DNA from: Candidatus Berkelbacteria bacterium
GTDB lineage: Bacteria > Patescibacteriota > UBA1384 > DTJR01
Length of the DNA stretch: 64,000 nucleotides
Direction of reading: 5' to 3'
NCBI GenBank assembly: GCA_026397175.1
Contig: JAPLVK010000021.1
Location: forward strand, 56,989 to 120,988
Positions 18,341 through 62,816 of this stretch are shown piece by piece. Made by a program: the position numbers and the translations under genes. Numbering within the stretch: the first letter of the stretch is position 1; every line of letters begins with the position of its first letter. Under the pieces are notes generated by a model. It made no database searches and was not told the origin of the DNA. It saw only the letters and a program-made list of their open reading frames with translations.

Positions 18341-19405
18341 GTGTTATTTTTGGCTTCCGGCGCTGTTGTTTTAGCCCAAACCGGTCATTTCAAAATTCTG
18401 GCTGATGTTATAGCTCCAAAAGCGGCTTTAGACAATGGAAGTTTACAAGTTTATATCAAAGATAAAGATACTCTTAAACCAGCATCAGGATCTCTTTCTG
18501 TCGAGTTATGGCAAGACAATACTTATATTACGAGATCTGCGGCTATTGCTTCGGAAACGAGCACAATTGCCTATTTCGGAGGTCTTTCAATCGGAACAAC
18601 CTACTATGTTAAATTAGAATCACCAACGCAAATGCCGGTATGCATCGGACAAAGTGTAGTTATTGCCGATGGTCTGCCGACTAAAACAGAACTTATATCA
18701 CCTTGCCAAACAGAATCCAAAACGCCAGAACCCAACAAGACCCAAACAGCAACTCCGGCTCCTACTTCGACCGGTTCTATTATTCCCTCCACCAAATTTG
18801 TCCTAACCGGCACGGTCTATGGCGGAGATGGTGAAACAACTCTACTCGCTGGTGCTACAGTTGACCTTTGGAATATCCCTGCTAACAAAAGCGTCTCTTC
18901 TGTCCAAACGAAGCCAGATGGAACATTCGAACTGCCAGTTGATTTACCATCCGGTAAAACGGTTGTTTTCCCGAAGGACTACTTTTTGCAATTCACAGCT
19001 ACAAATTACACTTCATTCGCAATCAACCCGCTCTCACAGAAATTCCCCAGCAATAATTTCGATGGAGGAAAGTCATACGATATAGGCAAGGTTCATCTTT
19101 ACAAAATACAATCAGCAACTCCAACGCCGACTGCGACAGCTACAATTGTTAAATCAAATCCAGATGTTACTCCAACGGCGGCTGTTGTAGTAAAGAAGTT
19201 TGATGTAGTCGGTTATATCGGATCTGAAACCCCGGAATTTTATCTTGATGGTATCAACTTGCAGCTTGTTATGAAGAGAGGCACCACAACCCATAACTAC
19301 AAGACAGTTACAACTGCCGAGGCGATAGATTCTCGAACCGGAGAGCAAAAAGTTAATTCTTGTTTGCCGATGCGACATACACTCTTATTCCTAAACTTAA
19401 TTTAG
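18341..19405 (+). CDS. Secreted protein with carboxypeptidase-regulatory-like beta-sandwich; probable N-terminal part of a split metallopeptidase gene
   Basis: Signal-like N-terminus. The open frame extends upstream to about 18245 with no ATG. The 3' end overlaps the next ORF by 46 nt in another frame. Confidence 0.5.
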   Translation: MLFLASGAVVLAQTGHFKILADVIAPKAALDNGSLQVYIKDKDTLKPASGSLSVELWQDNTYITRSAAIASETSTIAYFGGLSIGTTYYVKLESPTQMPVCIGQSVVIADGLPTKTELISPCQTESKTPEPNKTQTATPAPTSTGSIIPSTKFVLTGTVYGGDGETTLLAGATVDLWNIPANKSVSSVQTKPDGTFELPVDLPSGKTVVFPKDYFLQFTATNYTSFAINPLSQKFPSNNFDGGKSYDIGKVHLYKIQSATPTPTATATIVKSNPDVTPTAAVVVKKFDVVGYIGSETPEFYLDGINLQLVMKRGTTTHNYKTVTTAEAIDSRTGEQKVNSCLPMRHTLLFLNLI

Positions 19406-22296
19406 ATTTTTCTTCTCCGATTGATATCAATTCTCTGTTTAAAATTGATATCACTTCCCAAGACCTGCAAAACCACGATGGAATCTATTATAAATTTAAA
19501 GAAATTGATTTTGACGACAATATGGCTATTGATGTCTCGGTGAACGATGAGAATGGACCGTTGCCGAAGTCAACAGTTGAGGTTTCTTCTCAAGGATGTT
19601 CAGTCCTTAGATCAAAAAGCCAGATGACCAATAATGATGGCGAAACCAATTTTCTTAATGCTGATTTATTGTGGTTTTTTACTTATTTAAGATTACCGGG
19701 GAGCAAGTGTTTGCCCTATATTGATATCAAGGTTTCAAAAAATGGATATATCACTAAGGTATTAAACTATGATGTCGAGAACCTAAAAAGCGATTCGTTT
19801 AGAGTGAATGGTCAAGTGTCAATAGGAGTAACCCTTCAGAAAACAAAACCAGATCAAAAAGGCATTATTGGTACAGTACTGGATGCCGATAAAAAACCTA
19901 TTGAGGGAGCAGATGTCTATTTGTGGCGAGACAAAGCTATCGGCTTGCCATTATATCTAAAACACTCTGATTCTTCGGGTGGATTTGAATTTGGAGATAT
20001 CACGGGTGGTAACTACATTGTTTCATCATTTCATAAGGATTATTTATCGACCGAAAACAGCAGGCGATTCATAAAATTACGAACAGGTGAAGCGCAGGAA
20101 CTTGAGCTGGTTATGACTAGCTATCCTCACGATTTGGCGGAAAATATCTATTCGTTACCGGTAACTGCGTTTGAGCGCGAGACACAGACACTCGTTTCAG
20201 ATTTAAGTGTCGAATTTGATCAAGGAGGTAAATCAGAAAAGGTCTCTGTCAATTCCGGACGACTTTATATTAATGTAAAACCTGGTGCTTTGAGAGTAAA
20301 AGCTACGCGAAGTAACGAGACACTTACATCTCAAGTAGAAATCCCATCTGATTTTAATGCGTTGAGCGATACGGATAAGCAAAATATTTACGATAAACTT
20401 ACTTTTTATTTTTCTAATCTATCGCACGATACCGTTGACCGTCAAATCATAAAAGTTCTCGATCAAAAAAATCAACCGGTTGCAAATGCCCAGGTGGTTT
20501 TCTCTTATAATGACATCTTGCCTTTCTTCTTGAGTGGAAAAATGGCTGGGCAAACAAACAACAATGGTATTATCAATCTGCCAAACGACTTTCAATATGT
20601 AGATATTAACGATCTTCCGATTGCTATGTCTGTGGTCAAAAAAATAACACAGTTTAAACTCGGTCTTCTCGGGACCTTATCCCTAAAAGTCAAACGCCCA
20701 GATAGCGAAACTATCTATCCGTTTACAGAGCAAGTAAAGGGCGCAGATAAAAATTATGAAATTATTTTAAAAATTCCTGTCCTTTCTGAAAACAGTTCTG
20801 CAACCAGCCATTCTATCAATGTGCAGATCGCTGATCTAATAAAATGGGCTAGTGCAAGCGCAGACGACCTTAAGCCATTATATCTTGAGAAGAAAACAGG
20901 CAAAAATTGGGAAAGAGTTCAAATTCAGCCATCAATCCAAGAGGAGTCGATTTTAAATGGATTGTATAAAAAGCGTTTCAAATCATACCCTCATCCCGAA
21001 AAGGGAATTTATCGAGCGAGGATGGAGGGGAGCGATTACATCAGTGAGGAAAAAGTTTTTGATGATAAAGATGATTTGGGATTCTCGATCAATGGCTGTG
21101 TAAATAATGGAAATTACCATAAAGTTGATTATCCGGGAAATATATTCTTTGTTATGGGTTCGGGCGAATACACGGCTTATCAAAATAATGCAGCGCGAAA
21201 AAAACTTTTTGATAAAATTGCCGGTGACTTGTTGCTAGCCAAGAATCATTCTGTTGATGTCGGGCCATTGGTGGTAATTTGGACAGGCGATATGATCGGC
21301 ATCAATGCTTTTATGACCGACCCGGTTGCAACATGCATGGGAGTAAATAATGCAAGACCGATAAAGTTTACAAGCGAGTTTTTAGCTCTTGCCGAGAAGG
21401 GAAATATGGACTATATTATCAGCCCGGTCGTTATTCATGAGTATGGGCATCAGGTATATGAAGTTCTGAAGACCCAAAATCCGGATTTTTATAATCGTTG
21501 GGTAGATTTGTTTAAAAACATTAAGGGTTCGCAAAATAGTTGTGTGTGGGATCGTCTTAAAGAAGGGAATATTTGGTCAAATTATGTCGGCCTGGGTGGG
21601 CATCCAGACGATGACTATGGAGGTACGCTACCAGGACATGAAATGTTTGCCTCGATGTATTCTTCTTATTTTTCAATTAATTTTCATAACCGGCTTTTGT
21701 CAACAATAAATAATTATTCATCCGGAGAATGCCAGAACACTCTCGCTTATATGTGGACTTTATTTTCGGAAAATGTTGGGGAGCTTGTGAGTGGAGACAA
21801 GATTGCGTTCCAACCTTATGGTGGCGGAGTTAACCGTGCCCGATATTCTTTTTCTCAAATCAAAAGCGGAGCTTGGCGAGCGGATAGGTTTGGTGATCTG
21901 GGTTTATCCGGACAGGTTTCTGTAATGTATCAAAAATTTATCGCTCCGCTTGGAAGTAGTACTCGTACGGCGGCAATCGAAGCTAAGCTCGCGATAATAA
22001 ATAAATTTATTGATCTCAAAACGACAGGACGCCCAAAAGGAAATATTGAGGGCGTTGTGGTTGATAATCAGAACCTCAAAGTTCGTAGAGCTATCGTTAA
22101 AATCGGTCAGAAATATGCGGTTACCGATGATTCTGGCAGATTTTCGATAATTGGTATAGCGGAGGGAAGCCAGAATATATCGAGTATTATATTATTTAAT
22201 ACCGGTGGAAGTTATTTAGTTCAAAAACCTGCCGGCAAGAAGATTGTGATTCAAAAAGACAAGACGGTCTTTGTTAATATTAAAGTAGACAAGTAG
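19360..22296 (+). CDS. Large zinc metallopeptidase (HExxH) with carboxypeptidase-regulatory-like domains; lacks its own signal peptide
   Basis: VVIHEYGHQVYEV HExxH motif. CarboxypepD_reg-like segments (GTVLDADKKPIEGADVYLW…; GNIEGVVVDNQNLKVRRAIV…DDSGRFSI). TTG start with no obvious RBS. Confidence 0.55.
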   Translation: MFADATYTLIPKLNLDFSSPIDINSLFKIDITSQDLQNHDGIYYKFKEIDFDDNMAIDVSVNDENGPLPKSTVEVSSQGCSVLRSKSQMTNNDGETNFLNADLLWFFTYLRLPGSKCLPYIDIKVSKNGYITKVLNYDVENLKSDSFRVNGQVSIGVTLQKTKPDQKGIIGTVLDADKKPIEGADVYLWRDKAIGLPLYLKHSDSSGGFEFGDITGGNYIVSSFHKDYLSTENSRRFIKLRTGEAQELELVMTSYPHDLAENIYSLPVTAFERETQTLVSDLSVEFDQGGKSEKVSVNSGRLYINVKPGALRVKATRSNETLTSQVEIPSDFNALSDTDKQNIYDKLTFYFSNLSHDTVDRQIIKVLDQKNQPVANAQVVFSYNDILPFFLSGKMAGQTNNNGIINLPNDFQYVDINDLPIAMSVVKKITQFKLGLLGTLSLKVKRPDSETIYPFTEQVKGADKNYEIILKIPVLSENSSATSHSINVQIADLIKWASASADDLKPLYLEKKTGKNWERVQIQPSIQEESILNGLYKKRFKSYPHPEKGIYRARMEGSDYISEEKVFDDKDDLGFSINGCVNNGNYHKVDYPGNIFFVMGSGEYTAYQNNAARKKLFDKIAGDLLLAKNHSVDVGPLVVIWTGDMIGINAFMTDPVATCMGVNNARPIKFTSEFLALAEKGNMDYIISPVVIHEYGHQVYEVLKTQNPDFYNRWVDLFKNIKGSQNSCVWDRLKEGNIWSNYVGLGGHPDDDYGGTLPGHEMFASMYSSYFSINFHNRLLSTINNYSSGECQNTLAYMWTLFSENVGELVSGDKIAFQPYGGGVNRARYSFSQIKSGAWRADRFGDLGLSGQVSVMYQKFIAPLGSSTRTAAIEAKLAIINKFIDLKTTGRPKGNIEGVVVDNQNLKVRRAIVKIGQKYAVTDDSGRFSIIGIAEGSQNISSIILFNTGGSYLVQKPAGKKIVIQKDKTVFVNIKVDK

Positions 22297-22382
22297 TATT
22301 TGCAAACCGATTCCAGACCTGATATTCAACCAAAAAGTTGAAGTGAAATTAAGGCGTGAAATGCCTGAAATAAGATAGAAAG

Positions 22383-22420
22383 AGAAAAAGGCCGGCTCCA
22401 GCGGAGCCGGCCTTGGTGGA
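22383..22420 (-). terminator. Rho-independent terminator for the GC-rich gene 22437-22859
   Basis: On the minus strand, GGCCGGCTCC-GCTG-GAGCCGGCC is followed by TTTTTCTCTTTC. Confidence 0.75.
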
Positions 22421-22436
22421 CGGTGCGACCGACTCT

Positions 22437-22859
22437 TCATGGGCCGGTGAACTGGACACGGAAACATAGTGTCCAGATCGCTCGATCTTTATCTGCGGCG
22501 AAGATTGCGCTAATCCAGCCCTCGCGGGCCGAACCGGCACTGATTCTATAACCGCTCTCGCTGCGTTCAACCTTGAGACCGGGCGAAGCGAGAACGACAA
22601 GGGGTGTATTTCCCTCGAATAATGCCACTCCCTCGGCGGGGTACCATGTCCTGTACCATCCTGCCATCTTGATCTCAAGCTGGCCTGTAACCAGCTCGGA
22701 TTCCCCGGGATTGGAAGGTGTGCCGACCAAAATCGGGTCGGCATAGTACCCCCGTGCCCGCTCTGTCATTGGCAGCATTCTGCCGACTTGGATCCCGCTC
22801 GCCTGTGTCGTAGTTATGAAGCAGGCGAGTACGACAAAAATCATCGCGATTATCTTCAT
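22437..22859 (-). CDS. Small secreted protein in a GC-rich island (signal peptide, unknown function)
   Basis: The likely start is the ATG at 22859, 7 nt after GAGGAAG. Signal peptide MKIIAMIFVVLACFITTTQASG. About 58% GC. The ORF-track start at 22868 is a GTG two codons upstream. Confidence 0.55.
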   Translation of the reverse strand: MKIIAMIFVVLACFITTTQASGIQVGRMLPMTERARGYYADPILVGTPSNPGESELVTGQLEIKMAGWYRTWYPAEGVALFEGNTPLVVLASPGLKVERSESGYRISAGSAREGWISAIFAADKDRAIWTLCFRVQFTGP

Positions 22860-23093
22860 TTCAAACACTTCCTCGTTGGAAGATTACAGGGCAACATCTA
22901 GCGCCCTTAGAAATAAGACAGCTCATTTCTAAAAGAACAAGATAAATTACTATACCATAAAAACCCCAAAATATCAACCTGATTATAGCTTTTTGATGGT
23001 CTTAACGAAAGCTTTTAAGTCTCAAACTTGTATTTAGAAATGGAACTTGGGCTTGCATTTCAATTTGTGGTATCATATATGCGAGGAGGATAA

Positions 23094-24371
23094 ATGACCG
23101 ATGATTTAAATGTACAAAAGAAGGACGAAACCCCAATGGGGCCAAGGGAAAATGGTTTTGGTAATCAAATAAGCGATACGCCCCAAAAATCGCCACTCGA
23201 GGAAGCAAGCTCAACGCCGGATTCAGCTCCCGAAACGCCGGGTTTGGGTGTTTCTCAAAATCAAGATATAGCTGAACCGCAAGATTCCCCAAGTGACCAA
23301 ACTCCCTCCGAAGAAACCGCCCAAGCTCCCGACACCGACGAATTTTTAAAAAGTATTCTTGACGAAAAAAATCCTCCTGCCGAACCAGCCCCGAGCGCCG
23401 ATTCTCAACCGGTTTCTTCGGAGCCGCCAAAGACCGCAGAGACCCCAATCGTTCCGGAACTTCACGATGCGCCCGCACAGAACGATAATTCTATGGGTTT
23501 AAATCAGCCCACACCTCCCGAAGCGCCGACCCCTCAAGCTTTAACTCCCGAAACCCCAGCTCCAGGCGATTCTGCCTTGCCGCAACCGCCCGATCTTTCC
23601 ACACCCGATACCGGTATGGCTCAAGAAGCACCGATAGCACAAAGCCCAAACGAACCACCCCAAGAGCCCAAGATCAAAGATGAAATCGGGAACTTGGACG
23701 GAATCGTTTCAAGTCAAAAAGATAACCCAGACAAACCCGCATCAAGTGATATTTTTTCTGCTCCCAAAAATCCCGGGACTCCTAAATCGTCTTCTCTAAA
23801 ATTAATTCTTTTTGTCGGAGTCGCACTTATTGTTGTTGCTGCCGGCTATATTGGTATCAGCAAGTTATTCTCAAAACCAAGCACAACTACGGATTTGACA
23901 TCTTTGTCGGGTCAGACATCTGTGGCAGAAATTACCCAAAGTGCTACTGCAGCTATCGCGACACCCGATCAACAAAGAAAAGAGGACTTAAAGACCATCC
24001 AGCAGGCGCTTCTTAATTATTACGCTGCTCATGGGCAATACCCAATCGCAGCCGAAATTGTAATGTTGGGCACCTCGGGAAATATTCTGGAAAAGGAGCT
24101 GGTCCCGTCATATCTTAATAAAATTCCTGCCGACCCGATAGCCACCAAAAATTACGCCTATAAATCAGACGGCACGACATTCATTCTTTCGGCGGTTTTG
24201 GATGACGCGACGGATTCGGAGGGTGTCGTCGAAGGTGGACTGACTCTTTATAAAGTTACAAACTCCACAACCACAACCCAAGCGGCAAGCTCAACTGGCA
24301 CAACTGATTCGAGTTCAAGCGTAGATAATGCTTCATCTTCTACCTTGCCGACAAGCGCAACAGGCCTTTAA
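23094..24371 (+). CDS. Membrane protein with long Pro/acidic disordered N-terminal region, central TM helix and type IV pilin-like C-terminal domain
   Basis: TM LILFVGVALIVVAAGYIGI. C-terminus DLKTIQQALLNYYAAHGQYP…YAYKSDGTTFILSAVLDD resembles pilin or pseudopilin globular domains. Confidence 0.5.
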   Translation: MTDDLNVQKKDETPMGPRENGFGNQISDTPQKSPLEEASSTPDSAPETPGLGVSQNQDIAEPQDSPSDQTPSEETAQAPDTDEFLKSILDEKNPPAEPAPSADSQPVSSEPPKTAETPIVPELHDAPAQNDNSMGLNQPTPPEAPTPQALTPETPAPGDSALPQPPDLSTPDTGMAQEAPIAQSPNEPPQEPKIKDEIGNLDGIVSSQKDNPDKPASSDIFSAPKNPGTPKSSSLKLILFVGVALIVVAAGYIGISKLFSKPSTTTDLTSLSGQTSVAEITQSATAAIATPDQQRKEDLKTIQQALLNYYAAHGQYPIAAEIVMLGTSGNILEKELVPSYLNKIPADPIATKNYAYKSDGTTFILSAVLDDATDSEGVVEGGLTLYKVTNSTTTTQAASSTGTTDSSSSVDNASSSTLPTSATGL

Positions 24372-24395: not shown

Positions 24396-24956
24396 ATGAT
24401 CGCATGGATAATTATCGGAATTTTAGTTGTTATTGTTTTGTATTTGATTTTAATTTATAACTCTTTGATTACGCTCAAAACCAGATCAGAAGAGGCGTGG
24501 AGCGACATTACGGTTCAGCTAAAGCGCAGATACGATTTGATTCCGAATCTTGTTAACGCGGTTAAGGCCTACGCAAAACACGAGAGAGAACTTTTCGAAA
24601 AAGTGACGCAGGCCCGAACCGCCGCCATTTCGGCCAAAGGCATCAAAGATCAGCAAAAGGCCGAAAATCAAATTTCCGAATCGTTAAAATCAATTTTCGC
24701 CGTGGCCGAGAATTATCCCAATCTTAAAGCCAACGAAAATTTTCTTAATTTACAAGGAGAGTTAATGGACACGGAAAACAAAATCGAGGCCTCACGAAGA
24801 TTTTACAATGCGAATGTCCGCGACTTTAACATCAAAATTCAGTCATTTCCCAGCAGTATAATTGCCAATTCGTTTAAATTTACGCAAAAGGATTTGTTCG
24901 AGGTTGAGGCCTCCCAAAAAGATGTTATTCAAAATCCACCCAAAGTTGAGGTTTAG
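24396..24956 (+). CDS. lemA: LemA-family membrane protein
   Basis: N-terminal TM helix then LITLKTRSEEAWSDITVQLKRRYDLIPNLV…NYPNLKANENF, the LemA signature. Confidence 0.8.
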   Translation: MIAWIIIGILVVIVLYLILIYNSLITLKTRSEEAWSDITVQLKRRYDLIPNLVNAVKAYAKHERELFEKVTQARTAAISAKGIKDQQKAENQISESLKSIFAVAENYPNLKANENFLNLQGELMDTENKIEASRRFYNANVRDFNIKIQSFPSSIIANSFKFTQKDLFEVEASQKDVIQNPPKVEV

Positions 24957-25442
24957 ATGAAAAAAGTCCTCATTATTTTCGGGATTTTAATTTTGGCTCT
25001 AGTTGGTTATTTTACTTATCAGTCATATTCCGGCAAACCCAAGACGCCAAATATTTCGGAAAGTTTTACCGATAAGGGGTTTAGTATTTCCGGGCTTGGA
25101 AAGTCAATTGATACCGAGTATGTCAGCGACCCGATGAATTCTGATTTCGGAGTTGCAATTTATCCCAATTCGCAGCCGGCCGCAAATGTGCAATCGGCGG
25201 GCAAAGTTGATATCGGAGGTGAAAAGGCCTTAATTGGTACATTTAGGACTTCCGACTCGTTAGCCAAAGTGGTAACATTTTACACAAAACAAATGGGTTC
25301 GCAGGCGGTAACGGGGGATGTTGAGTCAAACGGTGTAACTTATAAAATTATCAAAAACCAAAATAACCAAGGCACGGTTATCAGTGTTTACACTCAAGAC
25401 AATTCAACTTTGTTTATTCTCGTCAAGCCGATTAAGACATAA
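24957..25442 (+). CDS. Hypothetical membrane-anchored protein
   Basis: N-terminal TM helix. Starts 1 nt after the lemA stop. No recognised domain. Confidence 0.4.
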   Translation: MKKVLIIFGILILALVGYFTYQSYSGKPKTPNISESFTDKGFSISGLGKSIDTEYVSDPMNSDFGVAIYPNSQPAANVQSAGKVDIGGEKALIGTFRTSDSLAKVVTFYTKQMGSQAVTGDVESNGVTYKIIKNQNNQGTVISVYTQDNSTLFILVKPIKT

Positions 25443-25557
25443 AATTTTTCTCAAATTAACTCCGGGTCTGATTTTTTTATTTGTATTAGTAAAATGCATA
25501 AGTTGACACAACCAACAAGAATTGTATAATTCTTGTTGATACTAAAAAGGGAGAAAA

Positions 25558-25800
25558 ATGAAGACAAAAACAGTCAACATATCTTTGCCAAATAAACTTT
25601 TAGAGGAAATTGACCGCAAGGCGAAAGAGGAGTACAAGAGTCGCAGCGAATTAATCAGAGAGGCAGCGCTTCAGTATATTCAGGGCCGAGATAATTGGGA
25701 GCTATTTCGAATTGATGCAGCACAGAGAGCCAAAAATTTTGGAATCAAAACCGAAGATGATGTTGAGAAAATGGTTGACTCCACGCGGAAATTTCTTTGA
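25558..25800 (+). CDS. Ribbon-helix-helix (CopG/Arc-like) DNA-binding protein
   Basis: VNISLPNKLLEEIDRKAKEEYKSRSELIREAALQYI has the beta-strand-helix-helix pattern. Confidence 0.6.
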   Translation: MKTKTVNISLPNKLLEEIDRKAKEEYKSRSELIREAALQYIQGRDNWELFRIDAAQRAKNFGIKTEDDVEKMVDSTRKFL

Positions 25801-25877
25801 AAATTCTGTTCAAATCTGGTTAAATCAAATAGAAGAGAGAAAATTTATCAATTAAATAATTAGTCAATTCAACAATT

Positions 25878-27635
25878 ATGGCGGAAAATAAAACCTGCAA
25901 ACAGTGCAAAAAAGAATTTGTCGTCACCGACGATGATCTAGCATTTTATAATAAAATCTCACCAACCTTTGATGGGAAAGTTTTTGAAATTCCCGCGCCA
26001 ACTTTGTGTCCAGATTGCAGAAACAGGCGGCGGCTCGGTGTACGGAATGTAACAAACCTCTACAAGAGGAAATGCGATCTTTGCGGCAGAGAAATGGTTT
26101 CAATGTATTCGCCCGATAAAACCGATCTAAAGGTTTACTGTTCTGATTGTTGGTGGTCTGATAAATGGAGCCATTCTGATTTTGCCCAAGATTATGACCC
26201 CAGTAAAAGCTTTATTGAACAAATTACCGAACTAAAACAAAAAGTACCGGCTCCTGCGTTGATGCATGCCGGCGATGAAAACAGTGATTATATAAATCTA
26301 GCCAATGACAACAAGAGTTGTTATTTGGTTTTTCTCTCTGGCAGAAATGAAGATACTTATTATGGTTATTGGTCGGAGGATAGCAAAAATTGCTGTGATG
26401 TTTCATACAACTCTTTTTGCGAGCTTTGCTACGAAGGAATAAATTTGGGTCGATGCTACAACGCTCACTGGGCTATTATGTGTCGCGATTGCCGCGATTG
26501 TTATTTCATCGAGGACTCATCAAATTGCTCTGACTGCATAATGTGTAGCCGACTTGCTCACAAACAATATTGTTATAAAAACAAACAACTTACGAAAGAA
26601 GAATACGAAATAATAAAAGCAGAGCTGATAGCCGGGCTCGAAACCAAGCTCGATGAATACAAAAAAGAATTTCACGAAATAGTAATTACTCAACCGAAAA
26701 AATACTCGCAAATTTTGAGATCTGAAAATTGTACAGGGGACAATATTTTCGATTCCAAAAATTGTCAACATTGTTTTATGACTTCGATGGCAGAGGACTG
26801 CAAATTTTGCTATGACTTAAATCGCGGCAAGGACTCTTATGATATAACCGGTTTTGGTATTCCAATCGAGCTTGTTTACGAATCGCAAAATGTTGGTTTG
26901 GGGTCGGGGCGTTGTGCTTTTATTAGCTTTGCTTATCAGCTCGCCGATTCTTATTATAGTGAGCACTGTTATTATTCAAAATATCTATTCGGCTGCGTTG
27001 GAGCCAAAAACCACGCTGAATATTGTATTTTGAACAAGCAGTATACAAAAGAAGAATACGAGAAGAAAGTTGCTGAAATAATCACAAACATGATGGCGAC
27101 CCCACTCCGCCCAGGCTCCGCGGGGCAGGGATGGGGTGAGTTTTTCCCTGCTGGTTTCTCTTCGTTTGGCTACAACGAAACGATGGCAATCGAATATTAC
27201 CCGATGCCCAAGGAAGAAGCCGAAAAACTCGGTTATTTTTGGTTTGAACAAAATAGCGATATTGAATTTAATGGCGTATCTTACGAACCGTTGCCAATTG
27301 AAAAATATAAAAACGATGAAACGGAGAGGCAGAAACTTTTGGGTGGAGTATTAAAATGTATCAAAACTGGTCGTCCATTTAAAATTATGCCTCAAGAGCT
27401 TCTATTTTATATCAAAAATAATCTTCCAATTCCAAAAGTGCATTGGGAGCAGAGAATGACCGACCGGCTGAATTTGATCAACCGAAATATACTCTATCAT
27501 CGTCAGTGTGACTGTGAGCAGGGTGGCCACGATCATGACGGAAAAAAATGCGAGAGAGAATTCGAGACAACCTACTCGCCAAATCAGCCAGAAAAGGTAT
27601 ATTGCGAGAATTGTTACTCGTGGGAAGAAAAATGA
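25878..27635 (+). CDS. Cys-rich protein, tandem paralog 1 (multiple CxxC zinc-ribbon-like motifs, internal repeat)
   Basis: 585 aa. N-terminal CKQCKKEF…CPDCRNRR…CDLCGRE…CSDCWW. Repeated C…C…LNKQYTKEEYE blocks. C-terminal CDCEQGGHDHDGKKCE…CENCY. Confidence 0.6.
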   Translation: MAENKTCKQCKKEFVVTDDDLAFYNKISPTFDGKVFEIPAPTLCPDCRNRRRLGVRNVTNLYKRKCDLCGREMVSMYSPDKTDLKVYCSDCWWSDKWSHSDFAQDYDPSKSFIEQITELKQKVPAPALMHAGDENSDYINLANDNKSCYLVFLSGRNEDTYYGYWSEDSKNCCDVSYNSFCELCYEGINLGRCYNAHWAIMCRDCRDCYFIEDSSNCSDCIMCSRLAHKQYCYKNKQLTKEEYEIIKAELIAGLETKLDEYKKEFHEIVITQPKKYSQILRSENCTGDNIFDSKNCQHCFMTSMAEDCKFCYDLNRGKDSYDITGFGIPIELVYESQNVGLGSGRCAFISFAYQLADSYYSEHCYYSKYLFGCVGAKNHAEYCILNKQYTKEEYEKKVAEIITNMMATPLRPGSAGQGWGEFFPAGFSSFGYNETMAIEYYPMPKEEAEKLGYFWFEQNSDIEFNGVSYEPLPIEKYKNDETERQKLLGGVLKCIKTGRPFKIMPQELLFYIKNNLPIPKVHWEQRMTDRLNLINRNILYHRQCDCEQGGHDHDGKKCEREFETTYSPNQPEKVYCENCYSWEEK

Positions 27636-29359
27636 ATAAAACATGCAAACAGTGTAGCAAAGAGTTCATAGTCGAAGATGACGACCTTGCTTTCTATAAA
27701 AAAATCTCCCCGACTTTTGCAGGCAAGACTTTTGAGATTCCAGCGCCGACTTTGTGTCCTAAATGCCGGCTGATACGAAGAATGATTTGGCGAAATGAAA
27801 GAAGGCTCTACAAAGCGAACTGTAATTTATGCAAGAAAGATATTGTCTCGGTTTATTCTCCTAATAAAAAATTTAAAATATTGTGCCGGGATTGCTTTTG
27901 GTCTGATAAATGGGATCAGTTTCAATATGTGCTTGATTACGATCTAGAAAAACCTTTCTTCGAGCAATTTAAAACTCTGATGAAAAGTTCCTACTTGGTT
28001 AATTTATATTCGACCAATTGTGAAAATAGTGAGTTTGTAAATCAAGAGATGAATTCTAAGGACTGCTATTTGTGCACCGGAGGGAATGATAATATCGAAT
28101 GCTACTATTTAGAGAGCTGTATTCACGATACGAACTGTGTTGATTGCTACGGTGTCGGTTTTTCCGAGAAAGTTTCAAATAGCGAATTTTGCACGGTCTG
28201 CTTTTCCAGTCAATATCTTTTCAATTGCCACATGTGCCATAACTGTGTTTTATGCGATGATTGCACGGGCTGCGACCACTGTTTTGGATCAAAAAATTTA
28301 CGATACCAAAAATATCATTTTTTTAATGAGCCATTGTCGAAGGATGAGTATTTCAGTAGGGTCGGCGAATGCTTAAAGAATCCCGAACAACTTGAGAAGA
28401 ATAAGCAAAGATTTTCCGAGCACAAATTAAAATATCCTTACAAATATATGCTGACTATATCCTCCACCGACGATTGTAGTGGGGATGTTTTGATGAACTG
28501 TAAAAATACTGCGAAAAGTTACTACTGCTATAAAACAGAAAATACAAAATATTCTTACATTCTCGACTCAATGAAGGATGTCATGGATATTTTATCAACT
28601 GGTACTGGGGAGCTTTGTTTTGACTGTGCCTCTTCGAGTAATATCTATGGATCATGTTTTATTGACGCTTGCGAGAAAGTGAGAAATTCATATTACTCTT
28701 TTAACTGCACTAATTGTCACAATTTATTTGGTTGTGTAAGTTTAAATCATAAGGAATATTGCATACTAAATAAACAATATTCCAAAGAAGAATATGAGCG
28801 ACGAGTAGGGCAAATTATCAATCATATGCAAGAAACAGGTGAGTGGGGTGAATTCCTGCCGATCTCAAATTCACCCTTTTGTTTTAACGAGACAAACGCA
28901 AAAGAGCATTTCAACCTTGATTGCTCTGAGGCGAAACGAATCGGATCTTGCTGGCTGGACAAAGATTTCTCATCGAAATACTCAGGACCGATTTATACCC
29001 CTAAGGCACTCTCTAATTACCTGATAGGGGAAAATCCTCAAGCAGAAAATGAAATCGCAAAGTGCTTGCAAGGGGTTTTAAAATGTAAGGTCACGGGACA
29101 ATATTTTAAGATTATTCCGCAAGAATTAGTAGCTTGTATTAAGCAGAGAATTGAACTTCCCACAGAACACCCCGACCAACGCCACAAGGAACGTCTTGCA
29201 AAATTTAACAAGATGAATCTGTATAGTCGGCAATGTATGTGCGAAGAAACAAAGCATGGGCATAACGGACGATGCAAGGTAGAATTTGAAACCACCTACG
29301 CCCCGGATCGGCCCGAGCGGGTTTATTGCGAAAGTTGTTATCAAAAGGCGGTGATATGA
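27632..29359 (+). CDS. Cys-rich protein, tandem paralog 2
   Basis: The ATG at 27632 overlaps the stop of paralog 1 (ATGA). MNKTCKQCSKEF… is collinear with paralog 1 throughout, including CILNKQYSKEEYERR. Confidence 0.6.
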   Translation: MNKTCKQCSKEFIVEDDDLAFYKKISPTFAGKTFEIPAPTLCPKCRLIRRMIWRNERRLYKANCNLCKKDIVSVYSPNKKFKILCRDCFWSDKWDQFQYVLDYDLEKPFFEQFKTLMKSSYLVNLYSTNCENSEFVNQEMNSKDCYLCTGGNDNIECYYLESCIHDTNCVDCYGVGFSEKVSNSEFCTVCFSSQYLFNCHMCHNCVLCDDCTGCDHCFGSKNLRYQKYHFFNEPLSKDEYFSRVGECLKNPEQLEKNKQRFSEHKLKYPYKYMLTISSTDDCSGDVLMNCKNTAKSYYCYKTENTKYSYILDSMKDVMDILSTGTGELCFDCASSSNIYGSCFIDACEKVRNSYYSFNCTNCHNLFGCVSLNHKEYCILNKQYSKEEYERRVGQIINHMQETGEWGEFLPISNSPFCFNETNAKEHFNLDCSEAKRIGSCWLDKDFSSKYSGPIYTPKALSNYLIGENPQAENEIAKCLQGVLKCKVTGQYFKIIPQELVACIKQRIELPTEHPDQRHKERLAKFNKMNLYSRQCMCEETKHGHNGRCKVEFETTYAPDRPERVYCESCYQKAVI

Positions 29360-29691
29360 AAAAAATTTGTAAGTAGAATGAAAAAATCCCCCGCAAGTGA
29401 GGTATATAAACCTCGTGCCGAGGATCTCTGGTACAATAATATCATAATAGAATAAAATCTTCTATGCAGATAGACATCAAAAAATTCAAGCGAATAAAAA
29501 AAAGAAGCAGTCGAGTTTTATCTTGAAATTGCGTCGCAAATAAAAAAATCCTCCATATCGGAAATCTAGAGGAGGATTAATTGGCACTTGTCTGCGGTTT
29601 ATGTTTTAACCGCGAGAGGACTAAAGCCCTCACAAGCACCATCTACATTATGGCAGAAAATAATGCAAAGTCAATAAGATAAAGGTTTACG

Positions 29692-31764
29692 GTGGATAAA
29701 CAAGAAGCAAAAAAAAGAATCGAGGTTCTAAAAAAAGAAATCGATGAAAATCGGTATCTTTATCATGTGCAGGATAAACCGCGCGTTTCGGATGCGGTTG
29801 ATGATTCGCTCAAGCACGAGCTGGCAAAATTAGAGGAGCAATTTCCGGAGCTGGTAACTGATGATTCGCCGACGCAGCGCGTCGGCGGCAAACCGCTTGA
29901 TAAATTTGTCAAAGTTAGGCACTCAACACCGATGATTTCTTTAAATGATGTTTTTTCGTTTGATGAACTAAAAGCGTGGGAAGCTCGCCTTATTAAATTA
30001 GCCGGTGAGAAAAAAATTCGCGAATCAGGTTTCTACTGCGAATTAAAAATGGATGGATTGGCGGTAGCGCTGATTTACACAAACGGCACATTCACGCTTG
30101 GCGCAACACGCGGCGACGGACAGGTGGGGGAGGATGTAACAAATAATTTAAAAACGATAGAATCGATTCCGCTCGGTATAAAAATTAAAAATCAAAAATC
30201 CGCCGAGGAGAGTCCAGCCCTCTGGACGGCGTCAAATATCAAAATTGAGGAAGCGGAATTACCAGATGAATTCGAAATTAGGGGTGAGATTTATTTGTCA
30301 AAAAATGATTTTGAAAAATTAAATGAAGAGCAGAAAAAAAAGGGTGGGCAAATTTATGCGAACCCCCGCAACATTGCCGCGGGTTCAATTCGCCAGCTTG
30401 ACCCAAGTATTGCCGCATCACGAAATCTAAAATTTATGTCTTATCAAGTTGCCACAGAAATCGGATTAAAAAACCATTCCGAAGAGCACGAGCTAGTGGA
30501 GAAGTTAGGTTTTCAAGCAAACACGAACAATAATAAATTATGTAAAACAATCGAAGAAGTTAATGGATTTTTCGTTCATTGGAATAAACACCGAGAGGGA
30601 CTTCCATATCAAATCGACGGACTGGTTATTGGAATAAATGACCGGAAGCTTTTTAAGTCGCTCGGAATTGTCGGCAAAGCACCCAGAGCACAAATTGCAT
30701 TTAAATTTGCCGCCGAAGAAGCGACAAGCGTTGTAAAAAATATTATTGTTCAAGTTGGCCGAACGGGAAAATTAACACCCGTGGCAATTCTGGAACCGAC
30801 CGTCGTTGCCGGCTCGACCGTTTCTCGTGCCACGCTTCATAACGAGGACGAAATAAATCGCAAGGATATTAAAATCGGCGACACGGTTATTATCCGTAAA
30901 GCGGGCGATGTAATTCCCGAAGTTAAGGAAGTGATTAAAAGAATGCGATCAGGCAAAGAGAAAAAATTTTCGATGCCAAAGTCGTGTCCGGTTTGCGGAG
31001 GTGAAATTGTTAAAAGAGAAGGCGAAGTTGATTCGTATTGCAAAAACAAAAATTGCGCTATTGTCGAAATGCGCCAAATCGGACACTTTGTCTCGAAAGG
31101 GGCATTCGAGATTGATGGGCTTGGGCCAAAAATTATCGAACATTTAATTACCGAAGGTCTTATTAAAGACGCATCGGATATTTTTGATCTTAAAGTGGGG
31201 GATTTGGAACCGCTCGAGCGATTTGGCGAAAAATCAGCGCAAAATATAATCTTGGCAATTGACGAGAAGAGGGAAGTCGAACTCGACCGATTTATTTATT
31301 CGCTTGGAATTCGCCATGTCGGATCAACGATGGCAATGGACATCGCCAAGCAATTCGGAAATATAAATGACTTTCTCTCGGCCAAAGAAGGGGACTTTAA
31401 TAAAATGTATGGGGTGGGGGACAAGGTTGCGCAAAGCATTATCGAATATATAGGCGATGAGAAAAGTCAAAACTTTATAAAACGATTGATTGAGTTTGGC
31501 GTAAAAGTCAAAAATTACCACTCCCCTGTTTTGAAAAATAAATTAAGCGGAAAAACATTTATTGTTACTGGAACGCTTACGAGCATGACACGCGAGGAAG
31601 CACACAAAAAAATCATTCAATTTGGCGGCGAAGTTTCCGCTTCCATTTCCCAAAATACAAATTATTTGATTGTAGGCGATGAGCCGGGCTCAAAGCTCGA
31701 CAAGGCAAAACGGTTAGGTGTCAAAATCATCAGTGAAAAAGAATTTTTTGAAATATTGAAGTAG
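29692..31764 (+). CDS. ligA: NAD-dependent DNA ligase
   Basis: KxDG adenylation motif (CELKMDGLAV), Zn finger CPVCGGEIV…C, HhH and BRCT regions. 690 aa. Confidence 0.9.
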   Translation: MDKQEAKKRIEVLKKEIDENRYLYHVQDKPRVSDAVDDSLKHELAKLEEQFPELVTDDSPTQRVGGKPLDKFVKVRHSTPMISLNDVFSFDELKAWEARLIKLAGEKKIRESGFYCELKMDGLAVALIYTNGTFTLGATRGDGQVGEDVTNNLKTIESIPLGIKIKNQKSAEESPALWTASNIKIEEAELPDEFEIRGEIYLSKNDFEKLNEEQKKKGGQIYANPRNIAAGSIRQLDPSIAASRNLKFMSYQVATEIGLKNHSEEHELVEKLGFQANTNNNKLCKTIEEVNGFFVHWNKHREGLPYQIDGLVIGINDRKLFKSLGIVGKAPRAQIAFKFAAEEATSVVKNIIVQVGRTGKLTPVAILEPTVVAGSTVSRATLHNEDEINRKDIKIGDTVIIRKAGDVIPEVKEVIKRMRSGKEKKFSMPKSCPVCGGEIVKREGEVDSYCKNKNCAIVEMRQIGHFVSKGAFEIDGLGPKIIEHLITEGLIKDASDIFDLKVGDLEPLERFGEKSAQNIILAIDEKREVELDRFIYSLGIRHVGSTMAMDIAKQFGNINDFLSAKEGDFNKMYGVGDKVAQSIIEYIGDEKSQNFIKRLIEFGVKVKNYHSPVLKNKLSGKTFIVTGTLTSMTREEAHKKIIQFGGEVSASISQNTNYLIVGDEPGSKLDKAKRLGVKIISEKEFFEILK

Positions 31765-31947: not shown

Positions 31948-32472
31948 TTAGTCCAAACGGAAAAGACGCATTAGCTTCTCTTGTTGTGGGAGGTGGTCCG
32001 TGTTCAAATATGCTACGAATGGCGCAACACCGATGTTTTGACAGAGCACCGCGATTTCCTCTTGGCATTCGTAGGGATAAACCCACAAGCTTTTTTGAAT
32101 TTGGTAAAAATTAAATTCTATAAGTTTTCTTCGCAAATAATTTCTTCGTCCCTTATATTTTTCGGGTATATCATAACAAACCAAATGCCAATTTCCGTCC
32201 CAACTGTCCTTCGGTTCAATTGTGATTTCTTCTACTTCGATTTGTTTTAATAGTCGCTCACCTTTCTTGGTCAATCTGATTTCTTCACCGGACAAATATA
32301 TTGCTTTATCATTATAAAGTTTTTTAATTGTCTTTTTGTATCTATATCTCTTGTCTTTATTCAACGGCTTCAATATTTGCAACAAATTTGGAGCAAGAAT
32401 AATTGCTCCAGTAGCAAATGTTATGAGTCCAATCGTCTTAAGAATATCTTTTTGATTTTGCGAAATTGTCAT
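31948..32472 (-). CDS. Membrane-anchored protein with C-terminal Cas2/VapD-like fold
   Basis: C-terminal roughly 85 aa (WHLVCYDIPEKYKGRRNYLRRKLIEFNFYQIQKSLWVYPYE…MRLFRL) follows the Cas2 pattern LVxYDI…RR…LRK…G.R.Q.SV. N-terminal TM helix. No CRISPR array is present. Confidence 0.5.
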   Translation of the reverse strand: MTISQNQKDILKTIGLITFATGAIILAPNLLQILKPLNKDKRYRYKKTIKKLYNDKAIYLSGEEIRLTKKGERLLKQIEVEEITIEPKDSWDGNWHLVCYDIPEKYKGRRNYLRRKLIEFNFYQIQKSLWVYPYECQEEIAVLCQNIGVAPFVAYLNTDHLPQQEKLMRLFRLD

Positions 32473-60858: not shown

Positions 60859-61312
60859 TTGGAGGCAATTTGGCTTACAATTTTTGACATTAGATAGAAC
60901 ATAAAGCAGAGCAAGCCCAGCTTTCTGCTGGGCTATTATAGTCAAAAAAAACCAAAAGCCCTGAAATTTGACAAATGGATTTCCTGTTAACCCATTAGAC
61001 CTGGGAGCATTTAAATATGCATTAACGGGAAAAATCATCGGTTTGACAAAACCAGATGAGGAAGTGTTGAGGACACTTTACAGAAAAAATCCTCGTCAAT
61101 TCAAATTGAATTAAAGAGCCAGAATTGCTTTCAAGGCAATTCACTCAAATTCTTTACTAAGAGTTTGATCCTGGCTCAGGATGAACGCTAGCGGTGTACC
61201 TAAAACATGCAAGTCGTACGCTTGTAAAAGCGTGGCGAACGGGTGAGTAACGCGTGGGAATCTGCCTCAATCCGGGAAATACCTTGCCGAAAGGTGAGTT
61301 AATGTCCCATGA

Positions 61313-61739
61313 GATGGTAGCTAGTCATTGGTAGTTAGTTACTGGTAAAATGAGTTCATGATTTATAATGGACTCGATGTCTATAAACGAGCATACAAGT
61401 TGGCAATAGAAATACATAAGTTCTCCTTAGAACTTCCAAGATATTTACATAATGATATCGGAAGTCAAATAAGAAGATCCTCAAGATCGATTCCTTCTCA
61501 AATAGCAGAAGGTTTCTCTAGAAATAAATCAGATAAAGACAAGAAAAATTTCTTAAGAGATGCTCTTGGCTCAAACGAAGAAATGCTCTTCAATCTCAAG
61601 TTTATGAGAGATACGGATCTTATAAATTTAGAGAAGTATGAGTATTTCTTTAGCGAGTATGTTATCTGCGGAAAGCAGCTAATGAACTTGATGAAAAGTA
61701 TAGATACCAGAAACTAGCGACTAGCGACTAGTTACCATC
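61313..61739 (+). other. Intervening sequence (IVS) in 16S rRNA: 14-bp extended stem (GATGGTAGCTAGTC / GACTAGTTACCATC) closing a roughly 400-nt loop that encodes a protein
   Basis: The stem halves lie at 61313-61326 and 61726-61739. Flanking rRNA sequence is continuous with the conserved 16S 5' domain. Confidence 0.65.
61358..61717 (+). CDS. Four-helix-bundle protein of the rRNA-IVS family, encoded inside the 16S IVS
   Basis: YKRAYKLAIEIHKFSLELPRYLHNDIGSQIRRSSRSIPSQIAEGFSR is the family signature (…GLxSQIRRAAVSIPxNIAEG…). Same family as the Avd-like ORF at 44354-44749. Confidence 0.7.
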   Translation: MIYNGLDVYKRAYKLAIEIHKFSLELPRYLHNDIGSQIRRSSRSIPSQIAEGFSRNKSDKDKKNFLRDALGSNEEMLFNLKFMRDTDLINLEKYEYFFSEYVICGKQLMNLMKSIDTRN

Positions 61740-62279
61740 AAAGCTCCGGCGGATTGAGAGGAGCCTGCGTCCTATCAGCTTGTTGGTGGGGTAAAAGCCT
61801 ACCAAGGCAACGACGGGTAGCTGGTCTGAGAGGATGGTCAGCCACAATGGGACTGAGACACGGCCCATACACCTACGGGTGGCAGCAGTTAGGAATCGTA
61901 CACAATGGGGGAAACCCTGATGTCGTGACACCGCGTGAAGGATGAAGGTTTTCGGATCGTAAACTTCTTTTCTATGGGAGGATTATGACTTAACCATAGG
62001 AATAAGCATCGGCTAACTACGTGCCAGAAGCCTCGGTAATACGTAGGATGCGAGCGTTATCCGGTCTTATTGGGCGTAAAGAGCGCGTAGGCGGCCCGGC
62101 AAGTCCAATCTTAAATCCCATGGCTCAACCATGGAGCTGGATTGGATACTACCTGGCTTGAACACTTGCAGGGGTATGCGGAATCTACGGTGTAGGAGTA
62201 AAATCCATTGATATCGTAGAGAACACCAATGGCGAAGGCAGCTTGCTAGGCATTCACTGACGCTGAGGCGCGAAAGCGT

Positions 62280-62313
<34 letters not shown>

Positions 62314-62816
62314 ACGCCGTAAACGATGCGGACTAGGTATTGGGATCATCGACCGTCCTTGTACCAAAGCAAACGCGTTAAGTCCGCCGCCTGGGGAGTA
62401 CGAGCGCAAGCTTAAAACTCAAAGGAATTGGCGGGGGCTCGCACAAGCGGTGGAACATGTGGTTTAATTCGACAGTAAGCGGAGCACCTCACCAAGGTTT
62501 GACATCTATGGAATCCTGATGAAAGTCGGGAGTGCCCGCAAGGGAGCCGTAAGACAGGTGCTGCACGGTCGTCGTCAGCTCGCGGCATGAGCTGTTCCGT
62601 TAACTCGGGACACGAGCGCAACCCCGATCGTCTGTTAAATTTCCACACGTGTTACAATGGCCGGTACAGAGGGTTGCAATATCGCGAGATGGAGCTAATC
62701 CCTAAAGCCGGTCCCAGTTCGGATTGGAGTCTGAAACTCGACTACATGCAGTCGGAATTGCTAGTAACCGTAGATCAGAACGATCCGGTGAATACGTCCT
62801 CGAGCCTTGCACACAA

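Follow-up and report, generated by a model that had tools for sequence, protein, structure and literature searches.

The window analysed here is a stretch of 64,000 nucleotides from contig JAPLVK010000021.1 (positions 56,989 to 120,988 of the forward strand; assembly GCA_026397175.1) of a Candidatus Berkelbacteria bacterium, a member of the Candidate Phyla Radiation (CPR)/Patescibacteria. All positions below are those of the window. Our subject is a pair of adjacent genes for cysteine-rich proteins, open reading frames (ORFs) 1 and 2, and the ribbon-helix-helix (RHH) regulator gene in front of them. The three genes lie as follows:

25558–25800, + strand: RHH gene, 80 amino acids (aa), from the ORF list and a PF01402 match
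25878–27635, + strand: ORF1, 585 aa, member of a Cys-ladder multi-zinc family
27632–29359, + strand: ORF2, 575 aa, paralog of ORF1 with the same architecture

An earlier note, made from the sequence alone, had described these coordinates, an ATGA overlap between two collinear paralogs and an RHH gene directly upstream in the same orientation; all of this was confirmed and is far beyond chance. ORF1 and ORF2 share 41% identity from end to end (E 9e-137), and the RHH protein scored 43.6 bits against PF01402 (cut-off 20.5). The start codon of ORF2 and the stop codon of ORF1 overlap as ATGA (...AAAAATGAATAAA...), suggesting translational coupling. A longer in-frame start for ORF2, the ATG at 27548, is not supported by its homologues or by the gene calls on identical contigs (575 aa). 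Indeed, the N-termini in this family all read M-x-x-K-T-C-K-Q-C. Shine-Dalgarno-like sequences precede the RHH gene (GGGAG) and ORF2 (GGGAAG), and none is obvious before ORF1. An AT-rich imperfect palindrome with 21-nt arms (76% complementary) lies at 25842–25877 and abuts the ORF1 start codon. ORF1 is 100% identical to P0001, a protein of a 'Candidatus Berkelbacteria' metagenome-assembled genome (MAG) labelled 'zinc-ribbon domain containing protein'. Cysteines account for 36 residues of ORF1 (6.2%) and 47 of ORF2 (8.2%), as compared with a median of 1.0% in the other window ORFs of at least 200 aa. Cysteine is aligned with cysteine in 26 columns of the pair, in agreement with the more than 25 conserved cysteines per protein counted previously.

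Both proteins are built as [ribbon A-ribbon B]-solenoid 1-solenoid 2-middle domain-[ribbon A'-ribbon B']. In ORF1 these parts are listed below, with isoelectric points (pI) and model confidences (predicted local distance difference test, pLDDT):

25878–26192, + strand: N-terminal double zinc-ribbon module (aa 1–105; pI 8.1; pLDDT >90)
26250–26693, + strand: solenoid module S1 (aa 125–272), with a period-3 Cys ladder, CYKNKQLTKEEYE and a long helix at aa 240–271
26694–27107, + strand: solenoid module S2 (aa 273–410), with CILNKQYTKEEYE at its end and a helix at aa 391–407
27108–27341, + strand: middle domain (aa 411–488), acidic (pI 4.4; pLDDT ~90)
27342–27635 (stop codon included), + strand: C-terminal zinc module (aa 489–585), homologue of the N-terminal module

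The double CxxC ribbons reported at the N-terminus are present in both proteins, as ribbon A (C7/C10/C44/C47 in ORF1, C5/C8/C42/C45 in ORF2) and ribbon B (C66/C69/C88/C91 and C64/C67/C85/C88, respectively). The CxxC...CxxC columns of ribbon A were invariant or nearly so in alignments of 63 and 116 family members. Both CxxC pairs of ribbon B are kept in ORF1 and ORF2, where they are spaced by x18 and x17, and are lost in most relatives. The C-terminal CxC...H...C...CxxC cluster was also found as described. In ORF1, this ribbon B' is intact (C544, C546, H551, H553, C558, C576, C579), with C544, C558, C576 and C579 invariant across the family alignment, while ribbon A' is degenerate (C494, H522) and intact in some lineages. 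What the earlier note had not recorded is that, as judged by profile alignment, the C-terminal ~95 aa are a copy of the N-terminal ~95 aa. When slices of the 63-sequence alignment were compared with hhalign, aa 1–105 were homologous to aa 488–585 with 98.8% probability (E 7.6e-17).

Known zinc-ribbon models recognized these modules poorly. PF13451 (zf_Tbcl) matched ORF1 at aa 6–52 with 25.8 bits (cut-off 24, E 1.1e-5) and fell below the reporting threshold in ORF2, although the corresponding residues align. PF23477 (zf_Tbcl_2) gave 19.2 bits for ORF1 and 15.7 bits for ORF2, below its 27-bit gathering threshold, and TIGR04272 (CxxC-x17-CxxC) gave 12.9 and 11.6 bits, below its 36-bit cut-off. 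The terminal modules resemble these three families in their paired CxxC...CxxC motifs, and ORF1 passes PF13451. However, each of these families is a single small domain without an assigned function, whereas here a two-ribbon module of ~95 aa stands at both ends of the protein, and ~400 aa of each family protein are covered by no family model. Small archaeal CxxC-x17-CxxC proteins bind zinc, as measured by inductively coupled plasma mass spectrometry (PMC12704099), and by analogy the terminal ribbons likely do so as well. Charge differs along the chain, from mildly basic terminal modules (pI ~8) to an acidic centre (pI 4.4–5.6). The middle domain carries two highly conserved motifs, EWGEFFP and FGYNET. 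Neither ORF1 nor ORF2 has a transmembrane (TM) segment or a signal peptide (maximum 19-mer hydropathy 0.75), and a cytoplasmic location is likely.

The two central modules are repeats of each other, as S1 (aa 125–272) aligned with S2 (aa 273–410) with 99.9% probability (hhalign, E 7.6e-32). The earlier note had proposed two such internal repeats, each closed by the same motif. The repeats stand, and the quoted end motif is exact for the second module only (CILNKQYTKEEYE in ORF1, CILNKQYSKEEYE in ORF2). The first module ends with CYKNKQLTKEEYE in ORF1 and a degenerate HFFNEPLSKDEYF in ORF2. Autocorrelation of the central cysteines over 221 copies peaked exclusively at multiples of 3, with counts of 1,846, 1,188, 1,796 and 1,725 at lags 3, 6, 9 and 12, versus ~30–210 off-register; a run of this Cys ladder in ORF2 reads CHMCHNCVLCDDCTGCDHC. 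Family proteins carry 28–47 cysteines each, and 32 alignment columns are at least 50% Cys.

Confident AlphaFold2 models were obtained for ORF1 (pLDDT 85.6, predicted template modelling score, pTM, 0.85) and ORF2 (pLDDT 87.5, pTM 0.89; period-3 strands at aa 181–235 and 340–382). In these models, strands in an 'E--E--E--' pattern are followed by a long helix that closes each central module, and a tight beta-solenoid is therefore indicated. When the ORF2 model was compared with the PDB using Foldseek, the top 50 matches were all left-handed beta-helix (LbH) proteins, with a best E of 0.05, TM-scores <0.2 and root-mean-square deviations (rmsd) of 10–22 Å. Nothing significant was obtained in the Foldseek searches for ORF1 or ORF2. 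The family shares with LbH proteins the short strands every 3 residues and the capping helix after each solenoid. It differs from them in that Cys at i and i+3, instead of aliphatic or small residues, set the register, and in having two solenoids per chain flanked by zinc ribbons. The Pfam Hexapep family gave no match even at E<=1, and the central modules (aa 125–410) lack an invariant His and any residue recognisable as catalytic. Because the Hexapep match and an invariant His are both missing, we do not place the centre within the LbH superfamily and describe it, from the models, as a putative LbH-like Cys-ladder solenoid. The weak zinc-finger matches were also the only ones given by Pfam and NCBIfam, in line with the previous reading that no enzymatic motif is evident.

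A narrow solenoid with regular cysteines also occurs in the Tenebrio molitor antifreeze protein (PDB 1ezg), whose beta-helix has a Cys ladder with a 12-residue repeat. It was the only PDB sequence touched centrally by the family profile, and not significantly (E 7.8). The antifreeze protein is small, secreted and disulfide-bonded. The CPR proteins lack a signal peptide and their predicted location is the cytoplasm, so that metal ligation would be more plausible for them than disulfides. As far as we found, the building blocks, namely treble-clef ribbons, a beta-solenoid and paralog arrays, are known, and their combination is not.

Judged by sequence, ORF1 and ORF2 are members of a very large unnamed family so far found in CPR only. 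A word-indexed search retrieved at least 6,837 relatives among 90%-identity clusters. An exhaustive search of 1.84 billion representatives yielded 5,418 clusters at 50% identity (E<=1e-3), including 2,316 at E<=1e-30, nearly all of them 545–600 aa long and matched over their full length. Species-representative genomes contributed at least 576 matches. The best 78 genome loci and every named match belong to CPR/Patescibacteria. They include Berkelbacteria, WS2, Peribacteria/Peregrinibacteria, Gracilibacteria, Abawacabacteria, Paceibacterota and Nomura-, Staskawicz-, Lipton-, Jorgensen- and Gribaldobacteria, as well as MAGs labelled as Saccharibacteria.

The inability to assign these proteins to a characterised family was borne out, with nothing significant in Pfam, NCBIfam, PADLOC, PDB sequences or Foldseek. 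Among PDB sequences, searched with the single sequence and the family profile, the matches were an antibody Fab (E 0.22), a LIM protein (E 0.12) and the antifreeze protein. PADLOC-DB 2.0 gave no match for RHH, ORF1 or ORF2 at E<=1. The sole PHROGs match was phrog_15341 (function unknown; E 5e-6, ORF2 aa 121–318). No family match was found by tblastn in 50,697 phage genomes, and IMG/VR gave one marginal partial match; a phage or viral origin was rejected on these two results. The longest relatives (P0256 with 808 aa, P0247, P0229) carry no known extra domain. In the literature, searched by domain names and for CPR cysteine-rich or zinc-ribbon tandem families and paralog arrays, we found no account of the family. 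Hence, homology to a characterised zinc-finger housekeeping family, or a lack of conservation outside this genome, which the earlier note had set as outcomes that would overturn it, did not appear; conservation elsewhere is massive.

Same-strand tandem arrays are the rule in this family. In 65 of 78 loci, 2–8 copies lay within ~±8 kb, all on the same strand, and the window pair is a minimal array. At the other extreme, a 42,044-bp contig (L088 and L005; ena:ERZ27250602:k141_1305296) carries 19 full-length and at least 3 partial copies on one strand, and both of its ends fall inside family genes. The only breaks in this array are two DUF2079 genes, a 161-aa gene and a defective copy consisting of an 88-aa zf_Tbcl fragment and a 317-aa remainder. 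We take the DUF2079 membrane proteins to be putatively glycosyltransferase-like. Giant arrays were also seen at L006/L089, on a 325-kb contig.

The window pair shares its chromosomal context with a WS2 genome, with LemA upstream and LigA-GatCAB downstream. Between these two genomes, ORF1 is 65% identical, as compared with 65.6% for GatA, 59% for LigA, 72% for LemA and 50.5% for GatB, and ORF1 is therefore constrained like housekeeping genes. Orthologues of ORF1 show 58–75% identity, and those of ORF2 on Berkelbacteria-like contigs 74.5% (L090) and 61% (L092). The ORF1 and ORF2 orthologues of L092 come one after the other in that order, with the same 4-bp overlap as in the window, and an overlap of 1–4 bp with the next paralog is kept in L090, L091 and L092. 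The best paralog within the same locus had a median identity of 44% (maximum 57%), and 89% of 198 copies were closer to a relative in another genome. Array gene order is not conserved between species. Collinear fixed arrays were considered and rejected, as only two array pairs had at least three orthologues at >=55% identity, and both were rearranged. The protein ends and the solenoid-cap motif are the most conserved parts (entropy ~1.0–1.6 bits at the ends), versus 2.0–2.5 bits in the centre, where the solenoid bodies, together with the first helix, are the most variable. Overall, these sequence comparisons fit long-maintained, sub-functionalised cellular paralogs and not an arms-race family. 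Divergent head-to-tail paralogs in large numbers are also known in reduced genomes from the VirB2 pilin arrays of Patescibacteria (PMC12102498). In contrast to the pilins, the present family consists of zinc proteins of a cytoplasmic type and not of surface proteins, with ~44% identity between paralogs, housekeeping-level conservation and no evident diversifying selection.

To describe the neighbourhood of the arrays, 715 neighbouring ORFs from 80 loci were clustered. A soluble VirD4/TrwB-like P-loop ATPase of ~700–750 aa stood beside the arrays at 28 of the 80 loci, on the same strand and with a median gap of 127 bp (including L010, L011, L017–L019, L028, L037, L039, L044, L057, L060, L070–L072, L074 and L083); it was likewise seen at L093–L098 and L103. 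It scored above the Pfam thresholds for PF02534 (T4SS-DNA_transf), PF10412 (TrwB_AAD_bind) and PF12696 (TraG-D_C), and its sole PDB sequence match was TrwB, over the P-loop region. It has no N-terminal TM anchor, and its N-terminal ~300 aa are of unknown type. Against the NCBIfam coupling-protein equivalogs it reached 50–61 bits (cut-off 250). Thus, the array ATPase differs from VirD4/TrwB/TraD in being soluble and below the NCBIfam cut-off, and it is not encoded in the window, where tblastn found no gene resembling a type IV coupling protein (T4CP). In a reciprocal test on 80 metagenome loci seeded with the ATPase, a family gene lay 20–190 bp from each of the closest relatives of the array-linked type (>=51% identity, plus L098). 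The same search rejected the ATPase as an obligate partner: the link between ATPase and family is real, lineage-specific and not obligate. A published analysis reported 5,713 VirD4-type homologues in 2,918 Patescibacteria genomes, 148 of them near virB4; most patescibacterial T4CP homologues were orphan, and exaptation was raised as a possibility (PMC12102498). The array-linked ATPase may belong to this 'orphan T4CP' population.

A TrmB-family helix-turn-helix (HTH) regulator of ~250 aa was present in 22 loci (including L014, L015, L017–L019, L023, L024 with four copies, L029, L044, L053, L062 and L071), mainly in the Peribacteria/Gracilibacteria clade. It is usually divergent, 120–340 bp upstream, and sometimes lies between array members. 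This placement suggests dedicated, block-wise regulation of the arrays in that clade. The small immediate neighbours in a Pfam census were mostly parts of type II toxin-antitoxin systems (PIN, ParE/RelE, MazF, HicA, Phd, RelB, Doc, AbiEii and four RHH genes). Toxin-antitoxin modules (RHH-PIN, HigB/RelE, MazF, HicAB, Phd/Doc, AbiEii) recur between or next to array members, for example at L056 9872–10504 and L045 7418–7895. In the window itself, 31948–32472 (- strand) encodes a 174-aa winged-HTH protein with a PaaX_M/Cas2-like domain (PF20803, E 1e-20; weak PADLOC Cas2), around which we noticed no CRISPR context. Similar proteins occur near arrays in L035, L042 and L077.

The RHH gene was then considered together with the two elements upstream of it:

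25503–25530, + strand: predicted sigma-70-type promoter (TTGACA-16 nt-TATAAT, 12/12), 28 nt before the RHH start
25513–25538, no strand assigned: putative RHH operator, a perfect 11-nt inverted repeat (CAACAAGAATT-gtat-AATTCTTGTTG) overlapping the -10 box

The promoter was the only 12/12 site in a consensus scan of 24900–29800. Without mismatches, the operator half-site occurs nowhere else in the 64-kb window, and matches to it with one mismatch are at chance level. No terminator-like site was found between RHH and ORF1. The protein matched PF01402 (RHH_1) with E 2.4e-11 and, more weakly and still above the cut-offs, HicB_lk_antitox and RHH_5, as well as phrog_15666 (E 1e-13). We infer that RHH would bind the palindrome at 25513–25538 and autoregulate the promoter. 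With a consensus promoter and a perfect palindromic operator in place, this unit probably controls the transcription of RHH-ORF1-ORF2 in this genome.

The RHH protein resembles a CopG/VapB-type antitoxin in its short length, its RHH_1 domain and the palindrome overlapping its promoter. Unlike such antitoxins, it has no toxin gene beside it in the window, and the Cys-rich pair follows instead. In the flanks of 25558–25800, no ORF of at least 25 aa resembles a toxin, and ORF1 and ORF2 match no toxin family in Pfam, NCBIfam or PADLOC. The earlier note had treated RHH and the two paralogs as a unit, a co-occurrence that was not borne out. The ORF1 orthologues in L007, L090, L091 and L092 have no RHH gene in front of them. 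Related RHH ORFs were found by phmmer near arrays in only 2 of the 80 loci. Of the RHH-type genes among the small immediate neighbours of other arrays, the two that were located sit in toxin-antitoxin contexts. In L056, a PIN toxin gene comes after the related RHH (phmmer E 2.7e-6), and together they make up a VapBC-type module that is inserted between two genes of the family. A role for RHH as a conserved partner was rejected on its absence at the four orthologous loci and on the count of RHH-type genes, about 4 among the 80 loci. On this distribution, RHH is a local addition and a separate element.

Taken together, we favour the reading, with a probability of roughly 0.3 to 0.45, that the family is a non-enzymatic binding or adaptor scaffold with constant zinc 'handles' and a paralog-specific solenoid. 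ORF1 and ORF2 are members of an ancient family of soluble multi-zinc proteins of ~570 aa, which would be metal-stabilised. Their zinc modules at both ends would serve as common handles docking one and the same partner, which could be nucleic acid or a cellular machine and, in some lineages, possibly the adjacent soluble VirD4-like ATPase. The variable solenoid surface would give each paralog its specificity, and the array members are old paralogs kept under purifying selection and often translationally coupled. Several points weigh against this reading. Its mechanism is drawn from anatomy and gene context, and no significant structural analogue or informative fusion was found. The entropy contrast between constant ends and variable centre is moderate. 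Neither the window nor any of the four orthologous loci contains the ATPase, and among the ATPase-seeded loci only 13 of 80 contained the family, or 6 of 41 within 1 kb when at least 2 kb of flank was available on both sides. The restriction to CPR rests on the best-scoring matches only. Finally, the co-transcription of RHH, ORF1 and ORF2 is inferred, and ORF1 is immediately preceded by a promoter-like site of its own, a weaker one (9/12). A bolder version sees in the family a new CPR-specific class of protein, a metal-laddered beta-solenoid with zinc ribbons capping both ends, whose dozens of ancient paralogs in a genome would serve as a repertoire for recognition or as adaptors, working with exapted, soluble orphan VirD4-like ATPases; it appears rather improbable.

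The same ATPase also invites another explanation, in which the family members are a diversified set of its substrates, exported directly or via the patescibacterial type IV secretion system (T4SS) into the host cell and acting there in the reducing cytoplasm. The ATPase lies on the same strand beside the arrays at 28 of 80 loci, and the family is found beside all of its closest relatives. Patescibacteria also provide a precedent in the VirB2 pilin arrays near secretion genes (PMC12102498), and the CPR T4SS appears specialised for non-conjugation roles. However, ORF1 evolves as slowly as GatA and LigA and the array members are ancient, which is atypical of host-interaction effectors. Moreover, the ATPase has no TM anchor and scores far below the NCBIfam coupling-protein cut-offs, t4cp homologues are mostly not near virB4, and Ca. 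S. epibionticum does not need its copy for epibiotic growth (PMC12102498). Most arrays, including that of the window, have no nearby ATPase, and no secretion signal was identified. Overall, translocated effectors seem unlikely. We find it just as doubtful that the Cys-ladder solenoids hold a column of metal ions or Fe-S clusters for storage or buffering, electron transfer or redox sensing; the earlier note had suggested metal or redox sensing. The 28–47 cysteines per protein, their strict period-3 register, the 32 columns of at least 50% Cys and the zinc binding of related small CxxC-x17-CxxC proteins (PMC12704099) would all suit such a function. Nevertheless, the central cysteines are only 50–95% conserved, S2 has far fewer of them than the homologous S1, and many non-Cys residues are invariant or nearly so. 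The long upkeep of many distinct orthologous paralogs would also be unexpected for a bulk metal store, and there is no ferredoxin-type or radical-SAM-type motif and no match to a Pfam Fe-S family.

Two further explanations fare much worse. The earlier note had also raised a defence or toxin module, in which ORF1 and ORF2 would be toxic or anti-phage effectors under RHH antitoxin-like control. In its favour, the gene just before ORF1 on that strand is an RHH gene of antitoxin type with an autoregulatory promoter/operator, and toxin-antitoxin genes are frequent among the small array neighbours. This role is strongly disfavoured by the absence of RHH at four orthologous loci and its rarity beside other arrays, by the ordinary PIN toxin with which the related RHH of L056 pairs, and by the lack of any PADLOC or phage-genome match (one marginal match in IMG/VR). 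The housekeeping-like conservation of ORF1 and the ancient paralogy also weigh against it, and proteins of ~570 aa in up to 19 copies are unlike type II toxins. We consider it equally far-fetched that the central modules are a divergent LbH acyl-/acetyltransferase or gamma-carbonic-anhydrase-like enzyme, with paralogs differing in substrate. The top 50 Foldseek matches were indeed LbH proteins (GlmU, LpxD, LpxA, gamma-carbonic anhydrase, DapD, YrdA), strands recur with period 3/6, and two DUF2079 genes lie inside one array. Yet the best Foldseek E is 0.05, with TM-scores <0.2 and rmsd 10–22 Å, Hexapep is absent at E<=1, and there is no invariant His or catalytic residue. The hexapeptide signature is [LIV]-G-x2-[STAV]-x, from which the Cys spacing of 3 differs.

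Several other features were observed in the window. A complete 16S rRNA gene lies at 61153–62851 (+ strand), with 1,699 nt against a 1,533-nt model and ~166 nt of insertions. No tRNA genes were found in the 64-kb window. At 22300–23090 there is a GC-rich patch (~47% vs ~39% in the surroundings) with an unusually strong tendency to fold (z -7.1 for the minus strand). It contains a minus-strand ORF at 22437–22868 (143 aa, signal-peptide-like N-terminus), after which come a strong GC hairpin and a U-tract. The patch could represent either a foreign gene or a structured element. Rfam gave no match in the gaps at 22.2–23.15 kb and 29.3–29.75 kb. The gene at 19360–22296 (+ strand; 1,210 aa on the identical contig L001) encodes carboxypeptidase-regulatory-like repeats and, by eye, an HExxH motif (VVIHEYGHQ) near the C-terminal third; its product may be a secreted metalloprotease. 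The product of 23094–24371 (+ strand, 425 aa) has a Pro/Ser/Thr/Glu-rich low-complexity N-terminal half, one TM segment and no Pfam match on record, and its C-terminal region resembles the pilin/pseudopilin-like globular domains common in CPR.

A large part of bacterial diversity falls within CPR/Patescibacteria, in whose genomes of ~1 Mb most genes are without known function. In this setting, the family stands out by its thousands of clusters, its fixed 570-aa architecture, its housekeeping-level conservation and its arrays of at least 19 copies. Its size, conservation and arrays therefore argue for an important lineage-specific role. In the window, the RHH-promoter-operator unit offers a simple regulatory handle, and among metal-binding folds a Cys-ladder solenoid in the cytoplasm would be unusual. 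The array-adjacent ATPases provide a lead on the role of the 'orphan' VirD4-like ATPases of Patescibacteria, a question raised previously (PMC12102498). If the paralogs do form an adaptor repertoire working with these ATPases, they would represent a cellular system of a new kind, whose task might be to handle nucleic acids or proteins that pass between the bacterium and its host. Such a system would take up a noticeable share of the coding capacity of some minimal genomes, as illustrated by the 42-kb contig that consists nearly entirely of family genes.

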